From assembly GCA_947507965.1 (NCBI GenBank), contig CANNQU010000008.1:8459-72458 (forward strand): 64,000 nt of DNA. Reading direction: 5' to 3'. The notes under the pieces were generated by a model. It was not told where the DNA came from. It was given only the letters and a program-made list of their open reading frames with translations, and searched no databases. Numbering within the stretch: the stretch's first letter is position 1; the number at the start of each line of letters is the position of its first letter. The position numbers were made by a program, and so were the translations under genes. Positions 13,155 to 47,995 of the stretch are shown here, in pieces. This DNA comes from Bacteroidota bacterium (lineage in GTDB: Bacteria > Bacteroidota > Bacteroidia > UKL13-3).

Positions 13155-13465
13155 ACGAGATCCCATTATCACATATTTTATTTATAAGTACTGCCTTGTT
13201 TTTTATTGGTATGTACGGATTCTTTACTCGAAGGAACATGATTACCATTCTCATGTCAATTGAACTCATCTTAAATAGTGTAAACATTAATTTTGTTGCC
13301 TTCAATAAGTATCTGTTCCCGCAAAATCTTGATGGCGTTTTCTTTACTATTTTTATTATCTCCATTGCGGCAGCAGAAGCCGCTGTAGCCATAGCCATCA
13401 TCATTAACTTATACCGTAGCCTTCATTCTGTTGATGTGAATGAAACCAGTGAACTAAAATTTTAA
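13151..13465 (+). CDS. nuoK: NADH-quinone oxidoreductase subunit K
   Basis: 104 aa, 3 TM, ...MSIELILNSVNINFVAF...AAAEAAVAIAII. Confidence 0.9.
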   Translation: MNEIPLSHILFISTALFFIGMYGFFTRRNMITILMSIELILNSVNINFVAFNKYLFPQNLDGVFFTIFIISIAAAEAAVAIAIIINLYRSLHSVDVNETSELKF

Positions 13466-13468
13466 AAA

Positions 13469-15400: not shown

Positions 15401-15410
15401 CTAGTATCGA

Positions 15411-16913
15411 ATGAATCTGAATCTACTTATACTTATTCCCTTTATAACTGCCCTTGTGGTATTGTTTTGCAATGGGTTGAAACAGGTTAGAACCGTGGCA
15501 CTTTTGGGTTCCGGGTTGCAATTAATTCTGGCTTTTTGGCTGCTTTATTGTTTTTATGAAGAACGGTCGGCGGGGAATGTTTCCCAAATGGTTTTTGAGT
15601 ACACTTACCAATGGTTTGCTCCTCTTCATATTAATTTTCATATCGGTGTTGATGGCATTTCTATCGCAATGATTTTACTTACGGCCTTCGTTGTAATCGC
15701 CGGCGTACTCGTTTCATGGAGCATGGACACCTTAAATAAGGAGTTTTTCTTTCTCTTGCTTTTCTTAAGCATGGGAGCTTATGGCTTTTTTATGTCTCTC
15801 GATCTCTTCACCTTATTCTTTTTCTTAGAAGTGGCCGTAATTCCAAAGTTTTTATTAATCGGCATTTGGGGTAGCGGCAAAAAGGAATATAGTGCGATGA
15901 AACTCGCGCTTATGCTTATGGGTGGCTCGGCCCTTGTTTTTGTTGGATTAATTGGACTTTATTTTAATACCAACATCGATGGTTTTCACTCTTTCGACCT
16001 GCTTCAAATTTCAAAAATGAAAATCCCTCTTGATGCCCAAATGCTGTTTTTTCCTTTTGCATTCATCGGTTTTGGAATTTTTACGGCTCTCTTTCCTTTT
16101 CATACTTGGGTGCCCGACGGACACTCTTCTGCACCTACCGCAGCATCGATGTTTCTGGCTGGAATTTCAATGAAACTTGGTGGTTACGGGTGTTTGCGGG
16201 TGGCTACCTATTTAATGCCTGACGCCGCTCACGCCTATTCCGAGATCATCATATTGCTCTCCACCATCGCCATTATTTATGGCGCCTTTGCCACTTTAAT
16301 GCAAACCGACCTGAAATATATTAATGCTTATTCCTCTATTAGTCATTGCGGATTTGTATTATTGGGTATTGGCATGCTCACACAAACATCCATAACCGGC
16401 GCAGTAATGCAAATGGTTTCTCATGGACTCATGACCGCGCTTTTCTTTGCTGCTATTGGCATGATTTATAGTCGAACACATACCCGAATGGTCGCTCATT
16501 TAGGCGGCCTGTTAAAGGTAATGCCCTTTATCTCTTCCGTATTCATTATTGTGGGTCTATGCTCTTTAGGATTACCTGGTTTTAGTGGGTTTGTAGCTGA
16601 GATGACCATCTTTATCGGTTCCTGGCAAAACCCGGAAACCTTATATCGTATCGCAACCATTTTGGCCTGTGCTTCCATTGTTGTTACCGCTGTATATATT
16701 TTACGAGCCACCGGGAAAGCCGTGCTAGGGCCCATCACCGATGCTCATTTCAATACGCTGGGCGATGCCTTGTGGAACGAAAAACTCGCTGCTATTCTAT
16801 TGGTTGGGGGGATTGTTGCTATTGGTATCCTCCCCTTTTGGTTAAACGATTTGATTACACCGGGAAGCCAACAAATTATTTTACAAACCGGCCAAAACAT
16901 ATTACTTAAATAA
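15411..16913 (+). CDS. nuoM: NADH-quinone oxidoreductase subunit M
   Basis: 500 aa with HTWVPDGHSSAPTAASMFLAG. Confidence 0.95.
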   Translation: MNLNLLILIPFITALVVLFCNGLKQVRTVALLGSGLQLILAFWLLYCFYEERSAGNVSQMVFEYTYQWFAPLHINFHIGVDGISIAMILLTAFVVIAGVLVSWSMDTLNKEFFFLLLFLSMGAYGFFMSLDLFTLFFFLEVAVIPKFLLIGIWGSGKKEYSAMKLALMLMGGSALVFVGLIGLYFNTNIDGFHSFDLLQISKMKIPLDAQMLFFPFAFIGFGIFTALFPFHTWVPDGHSSAPTAASMFLAGISMKLGGYGCLRVATYLMPDAAHAYSEIIILLSTIAIIYGAFATLMQTDLKYINAYSSISHCGFVLLGIGMLTQTSITGAVMQMVSHGLMTALFFAAIGMIYSRTHTRMVAHLGGLLKVMPFISSVFIIVGLCSLGLPGFSGFVAEMTIFIGSWQNPETLYRIATILACASIVVTAVYILRATGKAVLGPITDAHFNTLGDALWNEKLAAILLVGGIVAIGILPFWLNDLITPGSQQIILQTGQNILLK

Positions 16914-16921
16914 ATATAGGA

Positions 16922-18334
16922 ATGATGTTGAACGACTTTTTTATTTTAATGAAACAGGAGTTGGTGCTTCTGGCCATCCTCTTTATACTTTTGATTATTA
17001 AGGTGGGCAATGATTGGAGTAATGAGCGCCTGCTCAACGTTATCAATGCCTTATTGTTGATCAATGTTGTTGCTGGATTTATTATGCCTGCTGAAGGGGC
17101 CCTCTTCGGTGATATGTTTAAAACAAACGGCCTCATAACCCTCGAAAAAAACATTCTTAATGTCGGCACACTGATCATTTCCCTGCAGTCGTATTCCTGG
17201 TTAAAAAACCATAAGCACCTATCCGAGTTTTATATGTTAATGCTCTCTACTTTGCTCGGTATGTTTTATATGCTTTCGAGTGGAAATTTGCTGATGTTCT
17301 ACCTCGGGCTTGAACTCTCCTCTATTCCCTTGGCAGCCATGGCGAACTTCGATTTGGAGAAGCGTAAATCATCGGAAGCGGCCATCAAATTTATTCTCTC
17401 TTCTGCCTTTTCCTCCGGGCTACTATTGTTTGGTGTTTCTTTATTGTACGGCACTACCGGAACGCTAAGTTTTACTGAAATTACACCTCACCTAACCAAT
17501 GCTCCACTTCAGATTTTTGCCTTTGTGCTCATCTTAGCCGGTTTCTCGTTCAAAATTTCTGTTGTGCCTTTTCACTTCTGGACAGCTGATGTTTACGAGG
17601 GTTCACCGGTGGCTGTTACCTCCTATTTGTCGGTCATTTCAAAAGGTGCTGTGCTTTTTGTGTTTGTTTCCATTTTGTACACGGTATTCAAACCCTTGGC
17701 CGACGTTTGGTACAATATGTTATTCCTCCTTTCGGTGCTCACCATTGTTATAGGCAATTTATTTGCCATTCGGCAGGATAACTTCAAGCGTTTCTTGGCC
17801 TTTTCGTCTATTGCTCAGGTTGGTTTTATTTTGGTGGGGATCTCTGGAAGTTCTCCATTAGGAACGGCCTCTGTCATCTACTTTGTTCTAATATATATCT
17901 TTTCAAATCTCGGAGCATTCGGCGTTGTATCCATAGTAAGTGCGCTAACCGGTAAAGAAAACATCAGTGATTACAAAGCCTTTTACAAAACCAACCCGTT
18001 GCTTTCGTGGGTGCTTACCATCGCCTTATTCTCTTTGGCAGGAGTACCGCCCACAGCAGGCTTCTTTGGAAAATTCTTCTTGTTGATTGCTGGGGCAGAA
18101 CAGGGAAATTATGTGCTTATCAGTATTGCTGCACTCAATATGGTCATCTCGTTTTATTACTATCTAAGAATTGTAAAATCAATATTCATGGACCCCAACG
18201 AGCAGCCAATAGAAAAACTAACCGTTCCCTGGATGCCAAAACTAGCTTTGTTCCTATGCCTTGCGGGCATTGTGGTTATTGGGTTGTGGAGTACTATTTA
18301 TGAATATATTTATTCGTTAAGCATTGGATTATAA
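16922..18334 (+). CDS. nuoN: NADH-quinone oxidoreductase subunit N
   Basis: 470 aa with PFHFWTADVYEGSPVAVTSYL. Confidence 0.93.
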   Translation: MMLNDFFILMKQELVLLAILFILLIIKVGNDWSNERLLNVINALLLINVVAGFIMPAEGALFGDMFKTNGLITLEKNILNVGTLIISLQSYSWLKNHKHLSEFYMLMLSTLLGMFYMLSSGNLLMFYLGLELSSIPLAAMANFDLEKRKSSEAAIKFILSSAFSSGLLLFGVSLLYGTTGTLSFTEITPHLTNAPLQIFAFVLILAGFSFKISVVPFHFWTADVYEGSPVAVTSYLSVISKGAVLFVFVSILYTVFKPLADVWYNMLFLLSVLTIVIGNLFAIRQDNFKRFLAFSSIAQVGFILVGISGSSPLGTASVIYFVLIYIFSNLGAFGVVSIVSALTGKENISDYKAFYKTNPLLSWVLTIALFSLAGVPPTAGFFGKFFLLIAGAEQGNYVLISIAALNMVISFYYYLRIVKSIFMDPNEQPIEKLTVPWMPKLALFLCLAGIVVIGLWSTIYEYIYSLSIGL

Positions 18335-28017: not shown

Positions 28018-29562
28018 TTAGTTTCCCCAGGTCTCTTTATCCAAACTTCGGTATTGAATAGCCTCCGCCAAGTGTTCTATTCGTATTTCGGGGCTTGCCG
28101 CAAGGTCGGCAATGGTGCGCGACACCTTTAATATTCTATCGTATGCCCGGGCACTGAGGCCTTGGCGCTCCATGGCTGTTTTTAGTAGGGTTTGCCCGGC
28201 AACACTTATCTCGCACACTTCTTTTACTTGTCGGCCACTCATCTGTGAGTTACTGTAAATTTGATACTCGCCTTTAAATCTGTTTGCTTGTATTTCTCTG
28301 GCCAGGATTACCCGGTCACGTATTTTCTCACTCTGTTCGGCTGTTCGGGTGGTGCTGCTTAGCTCAGAAAAACTCACCGGCGTTACTTCCACATGAATAT
28401 CTATTCGGTCGAGCAGGGGCCCACTAATTTTGTTTAAATATTTTTGTACTATCCCGGGGCCGCAAACACAGTCTTTTTCGGGATGATTGAAATAACCGCA
28501 TGGACACGGATTCATTGACGCTACAAGCATAAAGCTTGCGGGATATTCTACGGCAAATTTCGCCCTCGAAATCGTAATCATTCGTTCTTCCAGGGGCTGG
28601 CGCATCACCTCTAAAACTTGTCTTTTAAATTCGGGTAATTCATCTAAAAATAACACCCCATTATGCGCTAGCGATATTTCTCCCGGTTGGGGGTTTCCGC
28701 CCCCTCCCACCAAGGCCACATCGCTAATGGTGTGATGGGGCGAACGAAAGGGACGAACATTTATTAGGCCCATTTCTTTACTAAGCTTTCCGGCCACGCT
28801 ATGTATTTTGGTGGTTTCTAACGCTTCGTGTAACGAAAGTGGCGGGAGTATGGTTGGAAGGCGTTTCGCCAACATCGTTTTCCCTGCACCTGGGGGTCCT
28901 ATTAAAATTACATTATGGCCTCCGGCTGCGGCTATTTCCAGCGCTCGTTTTATATTTTCCTGACCTTTTACATCGCTAAAGTCTACATCCGTATTTTGCT
29001 GTTTATTAGAAAACTCTTCTCGCGTGTTAAATACTTCTCTTGGCGGTTTTATTCCTTCTTTAAAAAAAGAAACGATCTCCTTAATGTTGTCGATTCCATA
29101 AACTTCCAGGTCGCTTACGATGGCCGCTTCGCGTGCGTTTTGTTTGGGTAAAATAAACCCTTTAAACCCTTCTTTTCGTGCCTGAATAGCAATGGGCAAA
29201 ACCCCCTTAATGGGTACCACGGTTCCATCAAAACTTAGCTCTCCCATAATAATATATTCGCCCACCTCGTGTGCCGGAATTTCTCCAGATGCCGCCAAAA
29301 TTGCAGTAGCCAATGTTACGTCATAAGCACTTCCCTCCTTGCGAATATCGGCTGGTGCCATATTCACTAAGATCCTTAAACCACGAAGCGGTATTCGATT
29401 GTTTTTAAAGGCCGTTTCTATTCGAGTTTGGCTCTCTTTAACGGCGTTGTCGGGCAAGCCCACAATGTAAAAGTGTGGAACACCTTCACTAACATTTACT
29501 TCAACAGTAATAGAAATTGCGTTTACGCCATAAACAGCGCTTCCATACGTTTTTACTAACAT
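28018..29562 (-). CDS. YifB/ComM-family Mg-chelatase-like AAA+ ATPase
   Basis: N-terminal Lon-protease-like domain, Walker A LIGPPGAGKT, VLFLDELPEF, C-terminal ChlI-like region. Confidence 0.9.
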   Translation of the reverse strand: MLVKTYGSAVYGVNAISITVEVNVSEGVPHFYIVGLPDNAVKESQTRIETAFKNNRIPLRGLRILVNMAPADIRKEGSAYDVTLATAILAASGEIPAHEVGEYIIMGELSFDGTVVPIKGVLPIAIQARKEGFKGFILPKQNAREAAIVSDLEVYGIDNIKEIVSFFKEGIKPPREVFNTREEFSNKQQNTDVDFSDVKGQENIKRALEIAAAGGHNVILIGPPGAGKTMLAKRLPTILPPLSLHEALETTKIHSVAGKLSKEMGLINVRPFRSPHHTISDVALVGGGGNPQPGEISLAHNGVLFLDELPEFKRQVLEVMRQPLEERMITISRAKFAVEYPASFMLVASMNPCPCGYFNHPEKDCVCGPGIVQKYLNKISGPLLDRIDIHVEVTPVSFSELSSTTRTAEQSEKIRDRVILAREIQANRFKGEYQIYSNSQMSGRQVKEVCEISVAGQTLLKTAMERQGLSARAYDRILKVSRTIADLAASPEIRIEHLAEAIQYRSLDKETWGN

Positions 29563-29721: not shown

Positions 29722-30738
29722 TTAAAATTGCCTTAAAAATCGGGTGTCGTTCTCAAAAAATGTTCTTAGGTCGTTCACTCCATTTAAAAGCATGGATTGT
29801 CTTTCTATTCCCATACCAAAAGCAAAACCACTGTATCGCTCCGGGTCTATTCCACAATTTTTTAGAACATTCGGATGAACCATACCACAACCTAATATTT
29901 CAAGCCATCCCGTGTGTTTGCACACATTACACCCTTTTCCTCTACAGATAGTACAATTGATATCCATCTCGGCCGACGGTTCTGTAAATGGAAAATAGCT
30001 TGGTCGAAAACGTACTTCTATATCATCGCCATACATTTCCTTTACAAAGTAGAAAAGTGTCTGTTTTAGATCAGCAAAGCTTACCTTTTCGTCTATATAT
30101 AATCCTTCAATTTGATGAAAAAAACAGTTTGCTCTAGCGCTTACCGCTTCGTTTCTATAAACCCTTCCTGGCGCTAATATTCTAATCGGTGGTTGCTGGC
30201 TTTGCATGGTGCGTATTTGAACGCTACTGGTATGTGTTCGTAAAGCCAATTGGTCTTCCATATTAATAAAAAAGGTATCCTGCATATCTCTAGCCGGGTG
30301 ATTATCCGGAAAATTTAATGCCGAAAAATTATGCCAGTCATCTTCTATCTCTGGTCCTTCTTCAATGATAAATCCAATTTTTGAAAATATTTCTATGATC
30401 TTATTTTTAATTATTGCTATGGGGTGTCTGCTTCCTTTGTTTGCATAAAATGGGGGAAGCGTGAGGTCTTGTGAATTCTTTTTATCTTGTGGTTTATGAT
30501 TAAATACTTCGTGCTGACTTTTATACTTTTCTTCTATTGCCTTCTTTACCTCATTTAATAATCTTCCTGTTTCTTTTCTATCTTCGGGCGCGATGTCTTT
30601 AATTATATTAAATAATTCCATCATCTCGCTTTTTTTAACGAGAAATTTAATCCTATAATTTTCTAAATCTTCTCTGGTCAGTAAAGCAAATTTTTCTGCA
30701 TCCTCTTTGATTTTACGAACCCTTTCTTTAAAACTCAT
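29722..30738 (-). CDS. pheS: Phenylalanine--tRNA ligase alpha subunit
   Basis: HPARDMQDTFF, FRPSYFPFTEPSAE and GFAFGMGIER class II motifs. Confidence 0.95.
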   Translation of the reverse strand: MSFKERVRKIKEDAEKFALLTREDLENYRIKFLVKKSEMMELFNIIKDIAPEDRKETGRLLNEVKKAIEEKYKSQHEVFNHKPQDKKNSQDLTLPPFYANKGSRHPIAIIKNKIIEIFSKIGFIIEEGPEIEDDWHNFSALNFPDNHPARDMQDTFFINMEDQLALRTHTSSVQIRTMQSQQPPIRILAPGRVYRNEAVSARANCFFHQIEGLYIDEKVSFADLKQTLFYFVKEMYGDDIEVRFRPSYFPFTEPSAEMDINCTICRGKGCNVCKHTGWLEILGCGMVHPNVLKNCGIDPERYSGFAFGMGIERQSMLLNGVNDLRTFFENDTRFLRQF

Positions 30739-31135
30739 TACTCTATTATTTATTATTTAATTTATTTTCAAATGTACAGTTTTAATGCTTTTACTTTATA
30801 CACACCCTTGTATTAATATTAAACTTTAAAAAATTTATTTATATTTATTTATAGGTGTGAATGAAGTGTATTCTTTTATCTAATTTTATTTGTTTATCTT
30901 ATTATAAGCAATTTATGAACATAAATTAATTAATATATATCCTATAAATAAAGGGTTACACGTTGTTTTTAACAATATTTTTTAACGGTGTATAACCTTA
31001 TTTGTGTTTATTTTATTTCTGTTTTTTTGTGTATAAGAGCAGGTATAATCAGGTATAACTCAAGGTTAATCAACAATTCATTTTTTAAATTAATTATCAA
31101 CAAAATAAAGGGGTTTTATACACTGGTTTATACAC
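30739..31135. other. AT-rich spacer with clustered DnaA-box-like 9-mers (candidate oriC or DnaA-regulated region)
   Basis: Five exact copies of TTATACAC, forward at 30796, 31116 and 31128 and reverse at 30987 and 31028. Two of them match TTWTNCACA perfectly. Long A/T runs are present and no credible ORF. Confidence 0.35.
30769..30776 (-). promoter_or_regulatory. Candidate -7 box for pheS (TACATTTG on the minus strand)
   Basis: CAAATGTA on the plus strand is the reverse complement of TAnnTTTG, 31 nt upstream of the pheS ATG. Confidence 0.4.
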
Positions 31136-32743
31136 CTATTTTAGAGGTAATAATCGTATTAATTCTTCAATATCAAAGCCCGTTTTTAAATCAATTTCTT
31201 TGTAATAAACTATCTTTTCTGGTTGTATATGGTGAAAATAATCGCCTAAAATAAATCGTTCAAATTTTCTTGGATTTTTAAATACTATAATTTTATATTT
31301 TCCAGGAAATAAATTTTGAAAACGATAGGTGCTATTAGATTCTAAAGAAACGGTGTTACAAAAACCCGGATCCATAACAAGTCGTAGTTGATAATTAGTG
31401 TCCCTTAACGTATCTGTTTTTAAGGTGATTGATTGTAGGTCGTCTTTATTTAAAACCGATATCTTTATTTGGAAACTATCATTATTCACACCAAAAATAT
31501 CGGTTATTGCGCCTTTTGAAAACACAAGCCGATATTGCCCTTTTTTTATGTGGTTAATAATAACACCCAGGAAATCGTGAAAGTCTAATGAAAACGCTTT
31601 TATTTCTGAGGTATCGTCATAAAGCCTAATTTTTTTTAGATCAACCGTATTGGTATCGAGCGCTCGATAGAACATTATTGAAAGTGAAGAATCTTCTAGG
31701 TGAGTATAATAATATTGAAGTGGCTCAAACGTGGGTTTAGTGGCAACCTTCACCACTGTTTTATATAGGGTATCATCGATTGAATAATTAAAATGTGCCG
31801 AGTCTTTTGGGTGCAAATCCGTTATGAGATAGGTTTTATAGGTTTCCGACCAGCATTCATCACCGATAGTGTAATTAGAATATCTTTCTTTTTTGTCTGT
31901 GCTTGGGTCTTCCTGGTTAATCCAGATGCGACGAAAATCACCTTTTTCGTCATAATTTCCCCTGTCGAATTCAAAAGCATAAATACCTTTACTCGTTGAC
32001 GTTGCCGCAATTAGATGATGGTTTGGTACGCGTTGATTAAATTGTCGAATAAGTAGCCGTTTAGGAATTGAATCCACCATGATAGGTTCATCCAAATAGC
32101 CGATCTCCTCCCCTGCTTCCCAGCGGTTATTATTATTCTTGTCGGCAATAACGACTATTTTGTATGTAGCGGGTTTTATGTGTTCAATAATGAAATTGCC
32201 GTTATTATCGGTCTGGGTAATATAGTTGGGACGGTTGTTTATAATGACACTGTCGTTCAGGATCGTATAAAGGCAAACGGTGCTGTTTTTGCTAGGCTCT
32301 AAGGTAGTTGATGAAACAACAGAACCAAAAACCTTTGAAGAGTCTAACGCGTTTCCTGTACTAAAAAGGTATTTGACACTTTTTAGTGTGTTTCCTTCGG
32401 TAATATCTAAAATTGCATTATCGGCAATGATGGTGTAGGTGGTATTGGGTTGTAGGTTTTTAAGTTTTAGAAGTAATTTATTTTGCTGCGACTCAACACT
32501 AAAATCATTTGGCAATGGGGGTGATATGGTAATGTTTTTTTGTGGTTCATTTAATCCTATGTTCTCCGAAAAAGCCAGCGTTATTTTTTCGCTTTTAAAG
32601 TTTAAGGTGCTGTCTTTAGGGCTACAAGCGATGAGACTTGGAGGGGTTGTGTCTTTTGGGCCACCTGTTGGGGCCACGATATTTGCGCATGAAGTGAGCA
32701 GGAGTACGCCAATAATCGTGAGGAGTTTATTTTTTAAAGACAT
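31136..32743 (-). CDS. Ig-like (SbsA/Big_5-type) domain lipoprotein
   Basis: Lipobox LLTSCA followed by PTGGPKDTTPPSLIACSPKDSTLNF..., a common Bacteroidota lipoprotein N-terminus. Confidence 0.7.
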   Translation of the reverse strand: MSLKNKLLTIIGVLLLTSCANIVAPTGGPKDTTPPSLIACSPKDSTLNFKSEKITLAFSENIGLNEPQKNITISPPLPNDFSVESQQNKLLLKLKNLQPNTTYTIIADNAILDITEGNTLKSVKYLFSTGNALDSSKVFGSVVSSTTLEPSKNSTVCLYTILNDSVIINNRPNYITQTDNNGNFIIEHIKPATYKIVVIADKNNNNRWEAGEEIGYLDEPIMVDSIPKRLLIRQFNQRVPNHHLIAATSTSKGIYAFEFDRGNYDEKGDFRRIWINQEDPSTDKKERYSNYTIGDECWSETYKTYLITDLHPKDSAHFNYSIDDTLYKTVVKVATKPTFEPLQYYYTHLEDSSLSIMFYRALDTNTVDLKKIRLYDDTSEIKAFSLDFHDFLGVIINHIKKGQYRLVFSKGAITDIFGVNNDSFQIKISVLNKDDLQSITLKTDTLRDTNYQLRLVMDPGFCNTVSLESNSTYRFQNLFPGKYKIIVFKNPRKFERFILGDYFHHIQPEKIVYYKEIDLKTGFDIEELIRLLPLK

Positions 32744-33608
32744 AAATCAAGCTTGAATATTCTTTGTTGTTTCTTGCCAAAAGGTTTGATTTAATACCAT
32801 TGACGACTCCAAGAAACAGGCTTGCGATAAAGCCCCGATTCTTGTTTTCTTCGCTTTTTATACTAACGTAATAGGCGTCGTATTTCATGGGTAGCACACA
32901 TTCTAATTTAAAGCCGTAAGGCTTAAACAGATTTTGAATACTGGTTGTTGTAAAATGCGAAAGATGTCGAGGTACATCATATGCGGCCCAAGCAGGCCCA
33001 TAATGTTTCGCATCTTTTGAGTTGTGGTTTGGAACAGCGATGACGATAATACCGTTTTCTTTTAATCGTGCACTCAGTTGTTGTAGCCGTTCGGCGAGGT
33101 TATGCACGTGTTCGAGCACGTGCCACATCGTTATTGCGTCGAAGGTGTCGTTGGTGGTGTTTAAATAATTTAAATCGTAAACGGTTATTTTCTTCTCTGA
33201 GGCCAACTGTCGTGCTTCTAAGCTTGGCTCAACCCCCGTTGTTTGCCATTGCAGTGATTTACAAAATCCCAAAAAATCGCCAGTTCCGCAACCGATATCT
33301 AATATAGAAACCGGTGTTTTAAAAAACCCCTTGATTAGGTTTGTTTTGTTTACGAATTGTATGTTTCTTATTATTCGGTAAGCCCAAGGAATAAGCCCTT
33401 TCTTATTGGCGTGGTGCGATATGTAGATCTCTGAATTGTAGTATTTAGCAATCTTGTTTTCCTCGGGTCTTGGGTTGGTAAATATAAAGCCGCAAGAGGC
33501 ACATTTTACGATATTAAACTTTTCTTTACTGATGCTGAAATCGGCACATTCTAAAAAGTCATCCAGTTTGGATTTTCCACACAACGGGCATTGTTCTATA
33601 ATTTCCAT
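32727..33608 (-). CDS. Class I SAM-dependent methyltransferase with an N-terminal Cys4 zinc-ribbon
   Basis: CPLCG...CASCG, then ILDIGCGTGDF (motif I). Confidence 0.8.
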   Translation of the reverse strand: MEIIEQCPLCGKSKLDDFLECADFSISKEKFNIVKCASCGFIFTNPRPEENKIAKYYNSEIYISHHANKKGLIPWAYRIIRNIQFVNKTNLIKGFFKTPVSILDIGCGTGDFLGFCKSLQWQTTGVEPSLEARQLASEKKITVYDLNYLNTTNDTFDAITMWHVLEHVHNLAERLQQLSARLKENGIIVIAVPNHNSKDAKHYGPAWAAYDVPRHLSHFTTTSIQNLFKPYGFKLECVLPMKYDAYYVSIKSEENKNRGFIASLFLGVVNGIKSNLLARNNKEYSSLIYVFKK

Positions 33609-33635: not shown

Positions 33636-35504
33636 TTATTTTCCTAGGCTTATCATTAAAACTGAAATGTCGGCAGGGCTTACACCCGATATTCTTGAGG
33701 CTTGTCCCAATGTGACGGGTTTAATTTTGCTTAATTTTTCTTTTGCTTCGTGTGAAAGCGATTTTATTTTATGGTAGTCGTATTCTGGTATAATAGCAAT
33801 ATTTTCAAATTTCAACATGCGATCAGCGTGATCTTTTTCTTTTTCAATATAGCTTTCATATTTCATTACTATTTCCGCCTGAATGAGCATGTCGTCGGTG
33901 TAATGAGCAAGAGCGATTTTAATATTTGTGTTTTTTTCAATAAAATGAGCGATACTTAGTTGGGGCCTGGTAATAAGTGTTTTTAATTTAACCTGTTGGC
34001 TTATTGGTGCCGTTTCTAGTGTGTTGAGTATTTGGTTTGCGTCTTCTTTTGTGATGGAGGTTTCATTAAAATAACGAATAATTTCATTGCTACCGATAAT
34101 TTTAGCTTCTACCTTTTTAACTCTCTCGTCGGAAGCGAGACCAATTTTATTACTTATCTGTGTTAAACGAATATCTGCGTTGTCTTGCCGAAGCAGTATT
34201 CTAAACTCGGCTCTAGAGGTAAACATTCGATAGGGTTCGTCGGTTCCCTTGTTAATTAAGTCGTCGATGAGTACGCCGATATATGCTTGATCGCGCGTAA
34301 GTATTAGGGGTTTTTGTTCATTGAGCTTTAGGTGCGCATTTATGCCTGCCATTAAACCCTGACAGGCCGCTTCTTCATAACCGGTTGTTCCGTTTATTTG
34401 CCCGGCAAAGTATAGTCCGGTAATCCGTTTTGTTTCTAACGTAGCAAAGAGTTGGGTAGGAGGGAAATAGTCGTATTCGATGGCGTAGCCCGGACGAAAC
34501 AATTTTACTTCCTTAAAACCGGGTATTTCCTTAAGTGCTTTTACTTGTATGTCTTCTGCCAGTGAGGTTGAAAAACCGTTTACATATATTTCGATGGTGT
34601 CCCATCCTTCGGGTTCAACAAAAATTTGATGGCGATCTCTTTCGGCAAAGCGGTTTATTTTATCTTCAATGCTGGGGCAGTAGCGAGGTCCAACACCTTG
34701 AATTCTGCCAGCGTACATGGGACTATCTTCAAATCCGGTTTTTAGTATATCGTGAACGTTTTGATTGGTATAAGTAACCCAACAGCTTTTCTGATTTTTT
34801 ACAGGTGCTGTTTCATCAAGATAGGAAAACTTACCAGGATTTATATCCCCGGCTTGTTCCTCCATTTTGCTATAATCTAAACTTCTTCCATCCACCCGGG
34901 GAGGTGTTCCTGTTTTCATTCGACCGGCAGTAAATCCGCATGCGACGAGTTTTTCGGTTATTCCAAAGGAGGCGCTTTCTCCAATTCTCCCGCCCCCAAA
35001 ACTTTTTTTCCCGATATGAATTTTACCATTCATAAACGTTCCGGAGGTGAGAATTAGTGCTTTACATTTTATTTCTAGGCCCAATGCCGTTTTTACACCC
35101 CTAACCGAGCCATCCACTATGATAAGGTCATTTACGTTGTCCTGCCAAAAATCAACCATTTGGATGGTCTCTAGTTGATCTCTCCAAAACTTCCCAAATA
35201 GCAAACGGTCGTTCTGACTTCGAGGACTCCACATGGCAGGGCCCTTACTTAGGTTAAGCATTCGAAACTGAATCGTGCTTTTGTCGGAAATGATACCAGA
35301 GTATCCACCAAGAGCATCTATTTCTCGCACAATTTGCCCTTTCGCCACCCCGCCCATGGCCGGATTGCAACTCATTTGTGCGACTTTTGTTAGATCCATT
35401 GTGATAAGCAAAACACTGCTGCCCATATTGGCCGCAGAGGCCGCCGCCTCGCAACCGGCGTGTCCGGCACCTACTACAATGATATCATATTCTTTAAACA
35501 GCAT
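33636..35504 (-). CDS. mnmG: tRNA uridine 5-carboxymethylaminomethyl modification enzyme MnmG (GidA)
   Basis: [27 protein letters not shown], full-length 622 aa. Confidence 0.96.
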
Positions 35505-35510: not shown

Positions 35511-35957
35511 TTATTTATATGTGGTGTTGTATCTTTCCAAATAAAAGTTTTCTTTTTCCTTCATTTCTATCTTTTGTTGAGGGGTTTTGTCGTTGTATCC
35601 ACATAAGTGAAGCAGACCGTGCGCCATTACTCTTCTCATTTCTTCCATGCGTTTCACGTGAAACACCGTAGCGTTTTCATTAACACGGTCAATACTAATA
35701 TAGATGTCGCCCTCTATCACGTCTTTCGAATCGCTTAAATTGAACGTAATGATATCGGTATAATAGTTGTGTTTTAGCACTCGGTTGTTTAGTTCAAGCA
35801 GATATTCATCGGTTACAATATTGTAGTTTAACAACCCAATTTGATAGTTTTCGATATTACCAATAGAGGTTAGCCAACCTTTTATTTGTTTCCAACGTGG
35901 GATATTAATTTTTTGGTTTTGCTTGTTTAAGCAGATTTTGGTTTTTAATTGTTTCAC
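35511..35957 (-). CDS. ybeY: rRNA maturation endoribonuclease YbeY
   Basis: HGLLHLCGYND zinc-binding motif, 148 aa. Confidence 0.9.
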   Translation of the reverse strand: MKQLKTKICLNKQNQKINIPRWKQIKGWLTSIGNIENYQIGLLNYNIVTDEYLLELNNRVLKHNYYTDIITFNLSDSKDVIEGDIYISIDRVNENATVFHVKRMEEMRRVMAHGLLHLCGYNDKTPQQKIEMKEKENFYLERYNTTYK

Positions 35958-40639: not shown

Positions 40640-41539
40640 TTAGATGAAAGGGTTATCGGGAAGAACGTAGCCGATATAGCCCTCGCGTTTTAATTTAACA
40701 ATACTTTCATTGGTTGGCTCCTCTTTCATGATAAGGCTTGTAATGAGGCCATACTGCATTAGTCCAACCTTACAGAGGAAATTGTGAAGCCTCAATTTGC
40801 TCTGTATCTGTTTAAAAACGCGTCCATTGTCTTCCCGTTTTTCATCTTCTGCCCCTTCCACAAAACAATCATTTTGTTTTTTATAAAAAACGTTTTTCAA
40901 ATTTAGGGCCAGTGCTATTTTGTTAATTTCTCTTTCCGAGACGGTAAAAATATAATTACCCACCGACTCAAAATTTTCATATTTGTGTATTCCACTTAGG
41001 AGAAGATGTAAACTATTAATGAAACCACGAATATTTTTTACGACGACGTTATCCCGACCAAAATTAATGTTTTTGTCCATTGGCTCAATCAGCACGACGC
41101 CTCTTTTTGCAACACGCAACATTTCATACAGGGCGATGGAAGGACGAGGAAAATGATGGTATGCTTCTTTGCAGAGTACGAAGTCGAAACGTTGGTCTTC
41201 AAACGACATTTTTTCTGCATTTTCAGCACTAAAGTTGGTAATAAATTGATCGCGATTAGCCACGATGAGTAGTGTGTCGCTTAAGTCGGTGGCCGTCACG
41301 TTTTTCACTCCATTAGAGAGCAAATAGTTTGCATCGGTACCATAGCGGCCATCACCTACGGTAAGCCACGAGGCGTCGGGGTATGATTCGATTAGAGGAA
41401 GCAGGTTTTTATACATCTTCTCGTGCCGCCAATAATCCACGGTATCTTTTTTTTTCCAGCTATCTAAAAGTTTTTGATCATTAATTTCATCCGAATGCTT
41501 TTTATGCAATTGGTAACTTTTCTCGTTATACAGGCTCAT
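40640..41539 (-). CDS. Class I SAM-dependent methyltransferase
   Basis: WLTVGDGRYGTDANYL (motif I-like) and FDFVLCKEAYHHF. Confidence 0.7.
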   Translation of the reverse strand: MSLYNEKSYQLHKKHSDEINDQKLLDSWKKKDTVDYWRHEKMYKNLLPLIESYPDASWLTVGDGRYGTDANYLLSNGVKNVTATDLSDTLLIVANRDQFITNFSAENAEKMSFEDQRFDFVLCKEAYHHFPRPSIALYEMLRVAKRGVVLIEPMDKNINFGRDNVVVKNIRGFINSLHLLLSGIHKYENFESVGNYIFTVSEREINKIALALNLKNVFYKKQNDCFVEGAEDEKREDNGRVFKQIQSKLRLHNFLCKVGLMQYGLITSLIMKEEPTNESIVKLKREGYIGYVLPDNPFI

Positions 41540-41548
41540 GTTTTTAGG

Positions 41549-42688
41549 TTAATCTATTAATTTCAAAAATTGGGTGCCGAAGGCAAGAACATTTTTTTCA
41601 TAGTCAATCGTCCCGGTGTTTAGCGTTTTTTCAGACAGAACCAATATCATTTTTTCAGACAAATCGGCTGCAGATAGAGGGTTAAACACCAATCCGGCAC
41701 CAGCAAGCTGTTCGATATTTACATCGATTGCCGAGGCAATAATAAATTGGTTCATTGCTTTTGCATCCTCAATAACCGTACTCCATCCTTCAAAAAGAGA
41801 AGGCTGAATTACGGCCAATGCGTTTTTCATTAATTGCAGGAGGTGAGCACGATCGATAAAACCCAAAAAACGAATCTCGTTTTCTAAATTATTATCTTCC
41901 ACTAGTTTTTTTAATTCTTTGGCATATTCAGGGTTACGATTATCGTTTTCTTTCCCGGTAAAAACGATACAGGGCTTGCGGCCTTCTGTTTTTAATAGTT
42001 TTGCGGCCTCTATTACGACACGGTGATTTTTGTGTTTCCAAAACTGGTTTGGAGCAATAAAATAATCCTTTGGCAAACGATAAGTCACCCTCAAATCTTC
42101 TTGTTTTAGCATATGATATGAAGGGTGTGTAACGGCAAAATGTAATACGTGTTTTTTTGAAAGATGGTCGGGATAAAAGGTGTTAAAACTGTTGCAAGCG
42201 TCATGACTACTAAAAACAACGTGACATTTTTTCGATGCGATTTTTTTGTGGTGCGATATTCTTCGTAAAATTTCACGCGCACTAAAAAAACCGGGATAAT
42301 ATAATTCTTGAAAATCCGGAATCCAATAAAAGGGGGTAGTATAATACCTAATGTGAGCACTAAAAACGGGAAACACGGCAACGCAATCGGAAATTGCGGG
42401 ATAGCTTTTGAAGAGATGCTGTTTCAGGAGTTTTTTTGCGAGAAAGTTTACCCCTCTTTTAAAAAAAGAAATGCCCGCCTTATTATCAAAAACAATTTCG
42501 AAGTATGGGTAGTTAAGGTTCCTAATGATCGCTTCTTCGTTAGCGGTGGTCACTATTATCTTTAAAAAGGGCTTCTGTGAATCGTCTATTGTTTTAAGCG
42601 CTTCTATCAGATTCAGCACATAATAGGTACCGCCCATCCACTGTTCGTCGTATAAAAACAGGAGTGCTATTTTTTTTCTTTCGGGCAT
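41549..42688 (-). CDS. Glycosyltransferase, GT-B fold (GT4-like)
   Basis: C-terminal ...VIQPSLFEGWSTVIEDAKAMNQFIIAS. Confidence 0.75.
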   Translation of the reverse strand: MPERKKIALLFLYDEQWMGGTYYVLNLIEALKTIDDSQKPFLKIIVTTANEEAIIRNLNYPYFEIVFDNKAGISFFKRGVNFLAKKLLKQHLFKSYPAISDCVAVFPVFSAHIRYYTTPFYWIPDFQELYYPGFFSAREILRRISHHKKIASKKCHVVFSSHDACNSFNTFYPDHLSKKHVLHFAVTHPSYHMLKQEDLRVTYRLPKDYFIAPNQFWKHKNHRVVIEAAKLLKTEGRKPCIVFTGKENDNRNPEYAKELKKLVEDNNLENEIRFLGFIDRAHLLQLMKNALAVIQPSLFEGWSTVIEDAKAMNQFIIASAIDVNIEQLAGAGLVFNPLSAADLSEKMILVLSEKTLNTGTIDYEKNVLAFGTQFLKLID

Positions 42689-42741
42689 GCTGCAAAATTA
42701 ATTTCGTTTAATACAAATAAAATAATTTATTTTGAAAGGTA

Positions 42742-43632
42742 ATGAAAATATTAATAATCGGCAGTGCGGGCTTTATCGGAAAAAATCTGGTTGCCTTCCT
42801 TAAAAACAAAAATCACGAAGTTTTCAGGGCGGACATAATGATGGAGGAGCAGACCGATTATTTTTTATTAGCAAAAGAAAATTCCGACTTCGACAAGCTT
42901 TTCTTAGAGAACAAATTTGATATTTGCTATAATTGTTCGGGTGCCGCCAATGTAAATTTTTCGATTCAAAACCCGCTATTGGATTATGAGTTAAACACCT
43001 ATAATGTATATAAAATTTTAGATGCCATTCGCAAGCACAATAAGGGTTGCAAGTTTGTTAACCTAAGTAGTGCCGCGGTATATGGCAACCCCCTTGAAAT
43101 GCCGGTGAGTGAAACAACAGAAGGAAATCCAATTTCCCCTTATGGGTTTCACAAATTAGCTGCCGAAAACATTGGATTTCAGTTTGCCGCATTATATGGT
43201 ATAGCGGTCATTAATGTCCGTATTTTTTCGGTATATGGGCCAGGTCTAACAAAGCAGATATTTTGGGATGTATTTCTGAAACACCAACAAGCAGGACCAA
43301 TTAAGCTCTATGGCACAGGCGAAGAAACGCGTGATTTTATTTATATCGATGATTTGTGTCGGGCATTAGAAGTTTCAGCCATGAACACGACCCATTCGAG
43401 CATCATAAACATCGCTTCCGGTAAATCCATCACGGTAAAAAAGGCCGTAGGTTTATTATTAGAGAATTTAGGAAATACGGGCGTCGTAGCGTTTAACAAT
43501 GAACAACGTGTTGGCGACCCGCTTTATTGGGAGGCAGATATTTCAAGGTTTCTTGAATCAGGCCCATTCGAGTTTACGAAAATTGATGAAGGACTACAAA
43601 AAACAGCACAATGGATGCTCACGCTTTCTTAA
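42742..43632 (+). CDS. NAD-dependent sugar epimerase/dehydratase (SDR)
   Basis: MKILIIGSAGFIGKNL (GxxGxxG) and SPYGFHK (YxxxK). Confidence 0.85.
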   Translation: MKILIIGSAGFIGKNLVAFLKNKNHEVFRADIMMEEQTDYFLLAKENSDFDKLFLENKFDICYNCSGAANVNFSIQNPLLDYELNTYNVYKILDAIRKHNKGCKFVNLSSAAVYGNPLEMPVSETTEGNPISPYGFHKLAAENIGFQFAALYGIAVINVRIFSVYGPGLTKQIFWDVFLKHQQAGPIKLYGTGEETRDFIYIDDLCRALEVSAMNTTHSSIINIASGKSITVKKAVGLLLENLGNTGVVAFNNEQRVGDPLYWEADISRFLESGPFEFTKIDEGLQKTAQWMLTLS

Positions 43633-44476
43633 CCACAAAGCTGTACATACGTCCCGCAATAAGGCTTTCGTCTGGTATTACTCCAAAAAACTTTCTCAAG
43701 AAAAACCGTTGTACTTTATTCGTGAAGGAAAATCGACTGAAAAAATTTCCATTGACCAGGGTAATTATTTTAATGTTTTTTCTTCCTTTTTCTACTTTTT
43801 GTTTTGAAAAGGGGAAATAATTAAGGATGGAGTCGAAATAAGTATAAATATTTTCAATCACTAGTTCGGCATTAACAAAGCTGTTTTTGTATTCTTCAAG
43901 GGTGTATGCATTTTCACCCAAATAAAATTTTTGTAAAGGGTGCACGTGTAAAAACCACTCTTTATCCAGCTCGTTATAAATCACATGTTCTCTAATGCCC
44001 AGAAGCACTCCGTTTGGCTTTAATACACGAGCACATTCATTTACAAATTGCTGTAGGTTGTGAGCGTGATGAAAGGCTTGTCGGACGTAAACCACATCAA
44101 AGGTTTCTTTTTCAAAAGGTAAATTTTCGGCGTAGGTGGTGTGTATTTCCAGAGACGGCAGGACAAAATGCTCTTTTAATTTTTGAATCGCTCCAGCACC
44201 CACCGTATCGCTCTTATCCGGCTCTAAGGCATCAACATGAAAACCATGGAGCGCAAACGAAACGGCGCTGATACCATTCCCACTTCCCACATCTAGTAAT
44301 TTTAATGAACTATTGGTGTTGTGTCGGTTTATAATATTTAGTGTTTCTTCAAACTCTTCGCTTGTCTTAAATCGGTTAACGTTTTCAACTAAATTATCCG
44401 TGAGGTATGAGTTAAAGACAACATCATTAAATTCCTTCTTTGTTCGAATGTATTGTATGGTTTCTTCCCAGGTCAT
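43619..44476 (-). CDS. Class I SAM-dependent methyltransferase
   Basis: LLDVGSGNGISAV (motif I) and FDVVYVRQAFHHA. Its 3' end overlaps the convergent epimerase gene by 14 nt. Confidence 0.8.
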   Translation of the reverse strand: MTWEETIQYIRTKKEFNDVVFNSYLTDNLVENVNRFKTSEEFEETLNIINRHNTNSSLKLLDVGSGNGISAVSFALHGFHVDALEPDKSDTVGAGAIQKLKEHFVLPSLEIHTTYAENLPFEKETFDVVYVRQAFHHAHNLQQFVNECARVLKPNGVLLGIREHVIYNELDKEWFLHVHPLQKFYLGENAYTLEEYKNSFVNAELVIENIYTYFDSILNYFPFSKQKVEKGRKNIKIITLVNGNFFSRFSFTNKVQRFFLRKFFGVIPDESLIAGRMYSFVVKKA

Positions 44477-44570
44477 GAATGTTTATCAAATATTAGGGTG
44501 TTAATTATTGTTCCAAAATTACAGAAAAGGTCTTCGACTTTATTTCTTCCGATAATTTCAGGTAAAAACA

Positions 44571-45179
44571 TTATAATTTTTTTATAAATTTTGCAGGGTT
44601 TCCTCCAACTAAAGTAAAATCATCAACATCTTTAGTAACTACGCTACCGGCAGCAACTACGGCCCCTTCACCAATCGTGATGCCTTTCAAAAGTATAGAA
44701 TTAAAGCCAATCCATGCGTTGTTTTTTATTATTATTTTTTTACTCTCCACGTCATCCCAGTTTTTTAAGGCACCGGGCTTACCCATCGCAATGCTTTTCT
44801 TCCACTCCATTACATCATGTTGACGTTGAACATTATTTAGGGAGTGTGCATTGGTGTCAATGGTGGTGCAGCCCCAGGAAAACATAACATGGTCGCCAAT
44901 GATTATTTCATCGGCGGCAATAAAAGAGCTGCCCCCCAAAAAAGTTCCGTTTCCAACGGTAATTTTAGCCGTTGGTTTTTCAACAAAAAAACTCCCGAAA
45001 ATAAGGCAATCCGAACCAATCTCTATGTTTAGAGCGCCCTTTGAAACGAGCTTTACCTCCATTTTTAGTCCATCAATATCACTGTTTTCTCCTACCTTTA
45101 AATTTCCATTTAGGAGAAGTTTTTTATGGTGCGACTTATTAATAAAACTTCGAATATAATTCAGCATCAGATTTAACAT
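44571..45179 (-). CDS. Hexapeptide-repeat (LbH) acyl/acetyltransferase
   Basis: Repeated [LIV]-G-x-x-x-x hexads, ...IGFNSILLKGITIGEGAVVAAGSVVTKDV. Confidence 0.8.
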   Translation of the reverse strand: MLNLMLNYIRSFINKSHHKKLLLNGNLKVGENSDIDGLKMEVKLVSKGALNIEIGSDCLIFGSFFVEKPTAKITVGNGTFLGGSSFIAADEIIIGDHVMFSWGCTTIDTNAHSLNNVQRQHDVMEWKKSIAMGKPGALKNWDDVESKKIIIKNNAWIGFNSILLKGITIGEGAVVAAGSVVTKDVDDFTLVGGNPAKFIKKL

Positions 45180-45186
45180 TGTCTTA

Positions 45187-46107
45187 TCAATTAAATAATT
45201 TGTTTTTTAAAGAAATGAAACCCAAAAAGAGTCTTGCCTTTAAAGAAAACTTATAGGCTTTATGATATGTGTTTAAATCGGCCATATAATTATTAATGAC
45301 ATGAGCAGGGTGCCTAATTTTTTCATCGAGCTCCTTCGCCTTTAGGTTTGCTAATTTATTTGAAGCGTCTTTGGTACGCGATGCGCTTGCGTTAAAACCA
45401 ATATTGGTGACCAGGTTTATATTCGGTAAAACACATAGCCCATGTTGCATCCAGGTGCTTATTTGCCATTGAGCATCCCAGGTATCAATTTTATTATTAT
45501 ATACTTTCTTAAAGTGGTCCAACCAAAAAGAACGTTCACCGCTGGTATGAAACAAATAGTTGATTTGGTTGGATTTTAAAAACTCTTCATACAGCTCTTG
45601 ACTCAATGAATTGAGCTTCCAGGCTCTTCTCCAAGTAGCCCAACCCCAAATATGGCTGTAGTTTGAAAAATAATAAGAGGCCTCTCCCCATGTTTTTCCG
45701 AATTGAAAGTTGTTACCGCTTATTTGCATGATCCGTTCATCGTCCTTATATTGGAGCAATAACGTATTACAAAACACAAAAAAAGAAGGGTTCGGCAGAC
45801 AATCGTCTTCTAAGATAATCCCCATTTCTTCATGCTCGAAAAACCAGTCTATGGCTGAACTGATGGCTATTTTACACCCCAGGTTAGTTGTTCTAAAGAG
45901 TGTTTTTACCTCACAAGGCCAATCGACACTGGCCAATAATTTCGTTTTCAGGTCTTCGCATTTTTCTTTTTCACCCCATACGTTTTCTCTCGCACCGTCG
46001 GCGGCGATATAAAGTTTCGCCGGCCGGTATTGCCTTATTTTTTCAAATACCGTTAACGTCGTGTCGTGACGATTAAAGATAAGAAAAAGAAGAGGTGATT
46101 GGGTCAT
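45187..46107 (-). CDS. GT-A fold nucleotide-diphospho-sugar transferase-like protein
   Basis: LFLIFNRHDTT...LYIAADGAR...ILEDDCLP (DxD-like EDD). Resembles the HlpA-like/GnT-I-like family as I remember it. Confidence 0.6.
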   Translation of the reverse strand: MTQSPLLFLIFNRHDTTLTVFEKIRQYRPAKLYIAADGARENVWGEKEKCEDLKTKLLASVDWPCEVKTLFRTTNLGCKIAISSAIDWFFEHEEMGIILEDDCLPNPSFFVFCNTLLLQYKDDERIMQISGNNFQFGKTWGEASYYFSNYSHIWGWATWRRAWKLNSLSQELYEEFLKSNQINYLFHTSGERSFWLDHFKKVYNNKIDTWDAQWQISTWMQHGLCVLPNINLVTNIGFNASASRTKDASNKLANLKAKELDEKIRHPAHVINNYMADLNTYHKAYKFSLKARLFLGFISLKNKLFN

Positions 46108-46110
46108 TTA

Positions 46111-47070
46111 TTATTGGAGAAGTTTTTGAGCTATACGGGAATTAATAACAAGTTTATAGGGAGCCGCTAACAAGTGTTTAAACACAAACCTACCCCCATA
46201 TATTTTGGCCAATAGAGCCCACCTTAAACCATACTTTTGAAAAAGTAAAAATCCTGGATTTAGGGTGTTGATGTGTTTGTGCTTTTTCATTTCAATTATT
46301 TCTTTCACACGTTTTTCAGAATAACCGAGCGCAGCAATCGACTCGAGTAATAAATTACTCATATCGATAAAAAAAATCTTCGGCCAAAATTTTCTCCAGG
46401 GAGAACTATCGCCGGCCTCAAAAGTAATTAACGGTTTACCCATATAGAGTGTTTGTCCGGCAGCCGCGGCCACAAGCGCCAACGACATACAGCCCACATT
46501 ACCATCTTGCGTGTGTTTTTGTTCAAACGGGTGTGGCAGAACACTTCTTTTAATAATAAGCCGTTGAGCGCCGATGAGATCCGAATCGGAAATTAAATTG
46601 AGCAAATCTTTCCCATCCTCAAAAAAAATATTTTTATTTACCTCATTAAATTTTTCTGATAGCACAACATTCGTTGCGAGAAAAACAGCTTTTGCGTTTA
46701 CCATGATAAAGGCTAATTCATGGTTGTATTTTTTTATTTGATCTATTACGTCTGATAGAGAATGATCAAAAGTCAACATATCGTCATCGGGGATAAGCCA
46801 GGTGTATTCTGCTGTTCCCAAGGAGAACACTTTTCGTATGTTTTTTTCCGAACCAATGTTGGTCTCGTTTTTGGTATAGTATATGTTTTTGTAGCTGAGG
46901 TACGACTCGGCAATCAGGTTTTTGGTGAGATCGTTCTCACTGTTGTCGGAAATATTAATTTCAATATCGTTGTCGCTCAAATTTTTCTGCGACAAAATCG
47001 ATTCAATTAATATCTTAATTTGATTTGGCCTGTTATAAGTAGGTATTCCTATGGATAAAATTGGATGCAT
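46111..47070 (-). CDS. Glycosyltransferase family 2
   Basis: LSIGIPTYNRP N-terminus and ...LIPDDD. Confidence 0.8.
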   Translation of the reverse strand: MHPILSIGIPTYNRPNQIKILIESILSQKNLSDNDIEINISDNSENDLTKNLIAESYLSYKNIYYTKNETNIGSEKNIRKVFSLGTAEYTWLIPDDDMLTFDHSLSDVIDQIKKYNHELAFIMVNAKAVFLATNVVLSEKFNEVNKNIFFEDGKDLLNLISDSDLIGAQRLIIKRSVLPHPFEQKHTQDGNVGCMSLALVAAAAGQTLYMGKPLITFEAGDSSPWRKFWPKIFFIDMSNLLLESIAALGYSEKRVKEIIEMKKHKHINTLNPGFLLFQKYGLRWALLAKIYGGRFVFKHLLAAPYKLVINSRIAQKLLQ

Positions 47071-47073
47071 AGC

Positions 47074-47994: not shown

Positions 47995-47995
47995 G

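Follow-up and report, generated by a model that had tools for sequence, protein, structure and literature searches.

Does the intergenic spacer between pheS and the gene for a bacterial Ig-like (Big_5) domain protein mark the place at which the chromosome of an uncultured Bacteroidota bacterium begins to replicate? The spacer occupies positions 30739 to 31135 of a 64-kb stretch of contig CANNQU010000008.1, which is the whole of the DNA analyzed and is hereafter called the window; the skew curve and the ranking of clusters given below refer to that window. The spacer is 397 bp long and 80% A+T, versus 60% for the window, and its neighborhood includes mnmG (gidA), a classical origin-neighborhood marker gene. 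An earlier, sequence-only reading had described it as an A+T-rich spacer with no credible open reading frame (ORF), lying 2.5 kb from mnmG, and had proposed that it is a replication origin, or at least a DnaA site. Our analysis agrees with the description, in that the 88-aa ORF overlapping the spacer is almost certainly spurious and mnmG maps to 33636-35504, and it supports the proposal through conserved DnaA boxes, a tandem box arrangement that is linked to dnaA in other phyla, a minimum of duplex stability, and a switch in GC skew at third codon positions (GC3 skew). Judged from these features of the DNA, the spacer is probably the chromosomal replication origin (oriC) of this bacterium.

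The spacer holds a dense cluster of sites resembling the DnaA box, TTWTNCACA. Counting sites that differ from TTATNCACA at one base at most and taking 5000 dinucleotide shuffles of the spacer itself as the null, we found eight in 402 bp, versus a mean of 1.16 and a maximum of 7 in the shuffles. The exact 8-mer TTATACAC is present at 30796(+), 30988(-), 31029(-), 31116(+), and 31128(+), i.e., five times where 0.07 copies are expected; these five fall inside 340 bp and make up most of the seven copies in the 64 kb (versus 2.4 in dinucleotide shuffles of the whole window). The cluster is the densest 400-bp box cluster of the window and is unique within it. Several TTWTNCACA-like boxes clustered in noncoding DNA are among the features by which an oriC is recognized. 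All five copies of the 8-mer had been picked out correctly, in string and position, by the sequence-only reading, as had the near-boxes TTATCAACA at 31094 and TGTGAATGA at 30856 and a direct repeat of CAGGTATAA at 31040 and 31050; our search added a degenerate box, TTATGAACA, at 30913. The unit of the direct repeat, which reads TTATACCTG on the other strand, has the first six bases of the DnaA box, and the two units may be paired DnaA sites of low affinity or may be bound by another factor.

Comparison with related genomes revealed that both the spacer and its boxes are conserved. As relatives we used loci of 13 to 22 kb around MnmG homologues of 62 to 82% identity (L124, L125/126, L127 to L130, L160, and L211 to L214), drawn from related metagenomic genomes, about ten in number. 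The nearest MnmG homologues belong to Bacteroidota/Bacteroidia metagenome-assembled genomes (MAGs), at no more than 84% identity, and the exact pheS protein has matches on metagenome contigs only. Membership in Bacteroidota is also indicated by the type IX secretion (T9SS) sorting domains encoded in the window. Since the spacer junction is spanned by three independent contigs of the same organism (L001 to L003) as well as by every relative, chimerism of the contig at the spacer is excluded. Common to all relatives is the order M16-M16-CHU_C-ybeY-mnmG-(methyltransferase)-Big_5-(A+T-rich spacer of 347 to 471 bp)-pheS, with the genes past either end of this block varying among the genomes. The Big_5 gene, which is the last of the conserved block and reads toward the spacer, and pheS, on the other side, adjoin it in all of them. 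In 9 of 10 relatives, the Big_5-pheS spacer is also the densest box window of the entire locus, and the spacer, its boxes, and its A+T block are kept in each of the loci named above, as is expected of an oriC.

Site by site, the boxes retain their position and orientation among the relatives while the rest of the spacer has diverged. Homologous sites carry TTATACAC, TTATCCAC, or TTATTCAC, which differ at the degenerate fifth base, and TTATCCAC(A), which alternates with TTATACAC, is the canonical DnaA box. Because the variation centers on this fifth base, the N of TTWTNCACA, it points to DnaA sites rather than to an unrelated operator. The counterparts of the box at 30796-30804 are TTATACACA in L124, TTTTACACA in L211, and TTATTGACA in L213; those of the site at 30987-30995 are TTATCCACA, the canonical Escherichia coli box, in L124, TTATCCCCA in L125, and TAATTCACA in L213; and those of the site at 30913-30921 are GTGGATAA in L124 and L211 and GTGTATAA in L213. 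An ATTCACA/TTCACA core persists at 30856-30864 in most of the seven spacers compared but is degenerate (ATTAACA/ATCAACA) in L211 and L213, which are close relatives. Conservation is partial at 31028-31036 (TGTAACACA in L124) and weak at the box-like site 31094-31102 (TGTGTGTAA in L124). The tandem pair beside the Big_5 stop codon is kept in L124, L125, and L213, with the reading GTGTATAA-N4-GTGTATAA on the pheS strand, and the direct repeat at 31040-31058 is conserved as two copies of TTATAC(C/A) in L124, L211, and L213.

The spacers of distant relatives additionally have a motif of their own in common, TGCGACA/TGTCGCA (L125, 14378-14822; L127, 14424-14797; L128, 14374-14844; L130, 13555-13945), which is sometimes arranged as an inverted repeat, e.g., TGCGACATT...AATGTCGCA in L127, and is absent from the window and from L124. 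In those distant lineages, it may serve as the binding site of another factor.

Next to the boxes lies the least stable DNA of the window. Nearest-neighbor energies calculated over 40-mers place the minimum of duplex stability for the 64 kb at 30813-30853, beginning 9 bp past the perfect box at 30796-30804. An A+T-rich candidate DNA unwinding element (DUE) therefore adjoins a box that points at it, a further feature by which origins are recognized. This property is shared by the relatives: in 8 of 10, the least stable 40-mer of the whole locus falls inside the spacer, usually 85 to 133 bp upstream of the pheS start codon. Alignment A1 shows conservation of this A+T block together with the adjoining TGTATTAA; the latter, the core of a run of DnaA-trio-like triplets starting 2 nucleotides past the box, does not vary among four genomes. 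As an alternative unwinding site, we considered and rejected the tandem pair at 31116/31128, because the seven NTN triplets that follow it are located in the coding end of the Big_5 gene and are not conserved.

A strand bias consistent with an origin also changes at this position. The cumulative GC skew of the window has its minimum at 30807, within the spacer, albeit with a small amplitude, and when GC3 skew is analyzed gene by gene, the best of all 1-kb splits is at 31 kb (side effect corrected for gene strand, t=4.5). Left of the spacer, the coding-strand GC3 skew is +0.047 for minus-strand genes versus -0.050 for plus-strand genes (p=0.008); that the minus-strand genes are the G3-richer ones there suggests a fork moving leftward on this side. 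For minus-strand genes, the same measure falls from this positive value to -0.17 right of the spacer (p=2e-6; p=3e-4 for the conserved block alone). In the relatives, for which per-gene third-position skew replaced raw skew over ±10 kb, the four-class GC3 pattern predicted by an origin at the spacer was recovered in 4 of 6, and a fifth displays it on the mnmG side only. Overall, the skew evidence provides moderate support for an origin.

Independent evidence on the nature of the boxes comes from other phyla. A scan for the exact tandem TTATACAC-N3-TTATACAC in one genome per bacterial or archaeal species (185,579 species genomes) retrieved at least 119 loci. Because the matches are scattered over many phyla, the scan alone defines no lineage-specific element; it became informative once linkage to dnaA was tested, with the DnaA protein of L035 (Calditrichales), in which Pfam recognizes Bac_DnaA, Bac_DnaA_C, and DnaA_N, as the query. 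Of the 119 matches listed, 22, in other phyla, have dnaA inside the same 8-kb block, and among these linked loci the tandem boxes usually lie within a few hundred base pairs of the gene. As an 8-kb block is about 0.2% of a genome, well under one such case would be expected, and the count exceeds chance; the enrichment of the tandem arrangement beside dnaA is more than 70-fold among the matches listed. In L035 (1227-7995), the order is dnaA-(TTATACACA and TTATCCACA boxes)-rpmH-rnpA-...-mnmE-mnmG, with TTATACAC-N3-TTATACAC included, and the dnaA, rnpA, and mnmE ORFs are confirmed by Pfam. This locus shows the ancestral origin neighborhood.

The pheS side of the spacer contains, in addition, a putative promoter. 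Its -7 element at 30769-30776, TACATTTG, conforms to the Bacteroidota consensus, TAnnTTTG, and the form TAC(A/T)TTTG is invariant in alignment A1 and occurs in L125, L128, and L130 too. With a -7 element at this position, 30739-30768 would be the pheS 5' leader. The A/T run at 30744-30768, which the sequence-only reading had offered as an unwinding element, was rejected, since it is located between the -7 element and the start codon; 30808-30855 is the better candidate. The box at 30796-30804 is about 20 to 27 bp upstream of this putative, consensus-derived -7 element, which raises the question of whether the boxes serve pheS. At 69 Bacteroidota pheS loci from metagenomes that are unlinked to mnmG, we counted 0.59 boxes per 500 bp upstream, which is the background level, versus 3 to 7 at linked loci. 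Hence, the cluster goes with the junction of the mnmG block and not with pheS. A pheS-regulatory role of box 30796 is plausible besides an origin function and less likely in its place.

These results bear on several alternatives. The one deserving the most attention is that DnaA binds the boxes and tunes pheS, or is titrated there, while the active origin is elsewhere; the spacer would then be a promoter region under DnaA control, or else a relic or secondary cluster of origin type like oriCII of Pseudomonas aeruginosa. It would account for the overlap of the perfect box 30796 with the expected -33 region of pheS, it has a precedent in oriCII, which lies beside gidA and regulates gidAB-parAB (PMC13438810), and it would sit easily with skew evidence from the relatives that is just moderate. 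The lack of dnaA in the window, which the sequence-only reading had rightly entered as a caveat, can be counted on the same side: tblastn found no DnaA homologue in the window, and Pfam detected neither DnaA nor DnaN domains in the 40 larger of its 53 called ORFs, the 13 smaller ones being outside the scan. The oriC of Bacteroidota is, however, commonly far from dnaA (PMC4755523). We regard this alternative as unlikely, given that the cluster is absent from pheS in 69 other Bacteroidota lineages, that eight boxes over 340 bp together with a conserved stability minimum exceed the needs of a promoter operator, that the GC3 skew switch maps to the spacer, and that published Bacteroidota origins are near mnmG and far from dnaA (PMC4755523, PMC11278836, PMC12843772). 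The origin and promoter readings are in any case compatible, as one origin box can also regulate a flanking promoter.

Much less credible is an operator of an unrelated local transcription factor that happens to resemble DnaA boxes, e.g., a response regulator acting on direct repeats. Repeats with a period of 10 to 12 bp, such as those at 31116/31128 and 31040/31050, are typical of many regulators, and most copies of the box end in C or T and not in the consensus A; yet neither the window nor any relative has a regulator gene adjoining the spacer, the relatives carry the exact canonical box TTATCCACA/GTGGATAA at homologous sites, and the dnaA-linked enrichment of the tandem arrangement among the matches listed likewise counts against such a factor. 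The idea that the sites arose by chance in low-complexity intergenic DNA and have no specific function is effectively refuted: although a spacer of this A+T content yields many near-matches to an A+T-rich consensus, 0 of 5000 shuffles reached eight sites, the exact 8-mers far outnumber their expectation, and site positions are conserved across genomes whose spacer sequences have diverged. A riboswitch, leader RNA, tRNA, or terminator is excluded as the explanation of the spacer, as it contains no Rfam family even at a permissive E-value and no tRNA in a tRNA scan, and no intrinsic terminator is predicted in it or downstream of the Big_5 gene. Matches to sigma-70 promoters in the spacer are fewer than at the shuffle level. 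An 88-aa ORF with a GTG start at 30988-31254(+), which runs over the box cluster and antisense to the 3' end of the Big_5 gene, was rejected as a gene and is almost certainly spurious, because gene calling in the relatives yields no counterpart and the region aligns with indels whose lengths are not multiples of three.

A number of observations weigh against an origin at the spacer. The skew minimum, the uniqueness of the cluster, and the absence of dnaA all refer to 64 kb of the replicon. The more distant relatives L127 and L128 keep three degenerate boxes only. For the relatives, raw cumulative GC skew computed over ±10 kb, where the data are short and noisy, has its minima off the spacer, and their non-orthologous flanking genes give +0.03 for leading versus -0.04 for lagging genes (one-sided p=0.08), a contrast that vanishes on the pheS side. 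Part of the skew could be due to gene-specific codon usage in the conserved block and in a polysaccharide cluster farther right; the genes of the block are orthologous, so that their bias could be a property of the genes. Three plus-strand genes on the right carry the wrong GC3 sign. The caveat of the sequence-only reading that the flanking genes all lie on one strand holds: the conserved block, 9 kb in length, would be head-on to the fork, as would most genes on the right of the proposed origin (24 of 27, all on the minus strand, over about 30 kb at 31136-60558), which is unusual beside an origin. Finally, the DnaA-trio-like run is undistinctive, as runs of at least four such triplets follow 28% of random positions; it is compatible with the origin model but is no evidence for it. 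Set against these points are a conserved multi-box cluster, an adjacent stability minimum with the right box polarity, a local switch in skew, independence from pheS in other lineages, and precedent in the phylum, for which an oriC is the best explanation.

If the spacer is an oriC, a mechanism can be conceived in which DnaA would bind the eight boxes of the TTAT(A/C)CAC type over about 340 bp and form an oligomer anchored by the box at 30796-30804, with its 3' end directed into the A+T block, together with those at 30856, 30987, and 31028, which face inward. This oligomer would melt 30808-30855, possibly via the trio-like GTA TTA ATA TTA, and helicase would then be loaded, with forks departing both ways from the spacer. 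The pheS promoter, at the edge of the unwinding element, would fire outward, whereas the mnmG-to-Big_5 block would read inward. DnaA binding, unwinding at 30808-30855, and firing of the origin are what we infer from the arrangement of the DNA. A bolder extension, which we consider doubtful, is that origin and pheS promoter form one coupled module across an order-level clade of uncultured Bacteroidota, in which the DUE-proximal box would double as an upstream element of the promoter and the 9-kb operon from M16 to Big_5 would run head-on and terminator-less into it. Were it true, origin firing and tRNA-synthetase transcription would control each other, giving initiation an input from growth rate through translation capacity. 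The coordinates of all of these elements and of the neighboring genes are collected in Table 1.

Table 1. Elements of the proposed origin and genes around it, in window coordinates
Feature	Position	Strand	Remarks
yifB	28018-29562	-	
pheS (phenylalanine-tRNA ligase alpha subunit)	29722-30738	-	TIGR00468 E=5e-96, PF01409; points away from spacer
Putative pheS -7 element TACATTTG	30769-30776	-	Bacteroidota type; read from sequence
DnaA box TTATACACA, perfect to TTWTNCACA	30796-30804	+	3' end toward AT-rich block; over expected pheS -33 region
DnaA-trio-like run CTT GTA TTA ATA TTA	30807-30821	+	Starts 2 nt past box 30796; five NTN triplets
Candidate DNA unwinding element	30808-30855	.	Nearly pure A+T; repeat TTTATTTATA x2
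DnaA-box-like TCATTCACA, 1 mismatch	30856-30864	-	Faces AT-rich block from far side
Degenerate DnaA box TTATGAACA, 1 mismatch	30913-30921	+	
DnaA box TTATACACC	30987-30995	-	Faces AT-rich block
DnaA box TTATACACA, perfect	31028-31036	-	Faces AT-rich block
Direct repeat CAGGTATAA x2	31040-31058	.	Minus strand TTATACCTG x2; 10-bp period
DnaA-box-like TTATCAACA, 1 mismatch	31094-31102	+	
Tandem DnaA boxes TTATACACT-GGT-TTATACACC	31116-31136	+	12-bp period; abuts Big_5 stop codon
Big_5 (bacterial Ig-like) domain protein, 535 aa	31136-32743	-	PF13205 E=5e-15; stop codon at 31136
Class I methyltransferase	32727-33608	-	
mnmG (gidA)	33636-35504	-	TIGR00136 E=2.5e-241; 2.5 kb from spacer
ybeY	35511-35957	-	
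CHU_C/T9SS-sorted protein, then two M16 peptidases	Past ybeY	-	

Several other features of the window and its relatives were observed along the way. In L124 (closest named MAG, GCA_026390915.1; 15864-19994), yifB, which lies downstream of pheS, is truncated to 258 aa and followed by small ORFs and a resolvase gene, with a second yifB-like stretch of 94% identity at about 20.3 to 21.2 kb; this disruption suggests that a mobile element inserted near the proposed origin. On the mnmG side, the window contains a polysaccharide (capsule/O-antigen-like) cluster of about 20 kb (40640-60558) with C-rich third positions, in which all genes but one are on the minus strand and which encodes glycosyltransferases, SAM methyltransferases, NAD epimerases/dehydratases, a DegT aminotransferase, and a TPP enzyme. 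Past the M16 genes of L124 and L211, the opposite strand instead carries 2-oxoglutarate dehydrogenase and Polysacc_synt genes, a difference in gene content suggesting that the mnmG side has been rearranged or replaced in the genome of the window. Beyond the polysaccharide cluster, two plus-strand genes at 60970-62333 have coding GC3 skews of -0.23 and -0.28, opposite to the leading-strand sign expected right of an origin, and the cumulative skew falls again past about 61 kb. Toward the left end, the window carries a HipA-like toxin kinase (HipA_C plus Couple_hipA) at 4849-6150, probably one half of a toxin-antitoxin pair, and a partial nuo (NADH:quinone oxidoreductase) operon at 9852-18334(+) that comprises the 49-kDa subunit, NuoH, and three Proton_antipo_M subunits.

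As a biological feature, the spacer is sound but ordinary, for each bacterial chromosome normally has one origin, and the current understanding of replication initiation is unchanged by it. Its value is mainly practical and comparative. A known origin in an uncultured Bacteroidota lineage allows MAGs to be oriented and coverage to be turned into growth-rate estimates via the peak-to-trough ratio, helps to separate leading- from lagging-strand genes, and could yield an oriC fragment on which to build shuttle vectors for a phylum short of genetic tools. It also offers an example of a Bacteroidota origin that kept the ancestral mnmG neighborhood while dnaA moved away, of TTATACAC(A) as the preferred Bacteroidota box, and of an assembly of boxes, A+T block, and flanking promoter that is stable clade-wide.

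The best-known point of comparison is the E. coli origin, where the order is gidA/mnmG-oriC-mioC and the 3' end of the R1 box faces the A+T-rich DUE. The spacer resembles it in its cluster of 9-mer boxes, in an R1-like box with the CACA end toward the DUE, and in having mnmG in the neighborhood. The transcriptional layout is similar as well, with one promoter firing away from the DUE (pheS in the place of gidA) and another unit reading inward (mnmG to Big_5 in the place of mioC). The two differ in that the spacer prefers TTATACAC over TTATCCACA, has mnmG on the inward-reading side, and is devoid of E. coli-type 13-mers and of GATC (0 versus 0.8 expected from the window average), so that the Dam/SeqA-type hallmark of enterobacterial origins is missing and control of that type is not predicted.

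A second comparison is with the basal unwinding system (BUS) of DnaA boxes, DnaA-trios, and an AT-rich region, which was described in Bacillus subtilis and is found in 85% of predicted origins (PMC8287927, PMC6669920). The box at 30796-30804 followed by a CC spacer, NTN triplets, and then an A+T stretch has the polarity tabulated for BUS. It departs from the commonest BUS form, in which a tandem pair precedes the trios, in having a single box at this place, and its trios are not above chance. P. aeruginosa oriCII is a DnaA-box cluster upstream of gidA that regulates gidAB-parAB, in a chromosome with its main origin at dnaA (PMC13438810). Like it, the cluster in the window is in the gidA/mnmG neighborhood and overlaps a promoter; unlike it, the cluster in the window coincides with a skew switch and a stability minimum, and the candidate regulated gene is pheS.

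Further parallels come from within the phylum. In the Flavobacteriaceae Mariniflexile litorale KMM 9835 and Algorimicrobium bowmanii KMM 8389, the oriC predicted by Ori-Finder 2022 adjoins mnmG, as GC skew also indicates, and is away from dnaA (PMC11278836, PMC12843772), and a Prevotella genome paper likewise notes from DoriC that the oriC of Bacteroidetes is commonly far from dnaA (PMC4755523). The gene gidA is on the indicator-gene list of Ori-Finder 2022, and such an indicator lies 2.5 kb from the spacer. By description, which is the level at which they were likened, the flavobacterial origins and the spacer agree in that mnmG rather than dnaA marks the origin and that DnaA boxes cluster in an intergenic spacer; they differ in that the spacer of the window is separated from mnmG by the methyltransferase and Big_5 genes and abuts pheS. 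Finally, the L035 locus of the Calditrichales has the same TTATACACA boxes, the same tandem TTATACAC-N3-TTATACAC with TTATCCACA admixed, and mnmE-mnmG a few kilobases away. The window differs from it in having neither dnaA nor rpmH: here, the origin-like cluster stayed with mnmG and dnaA is elsewhere, as reported for Bacteroidetes.

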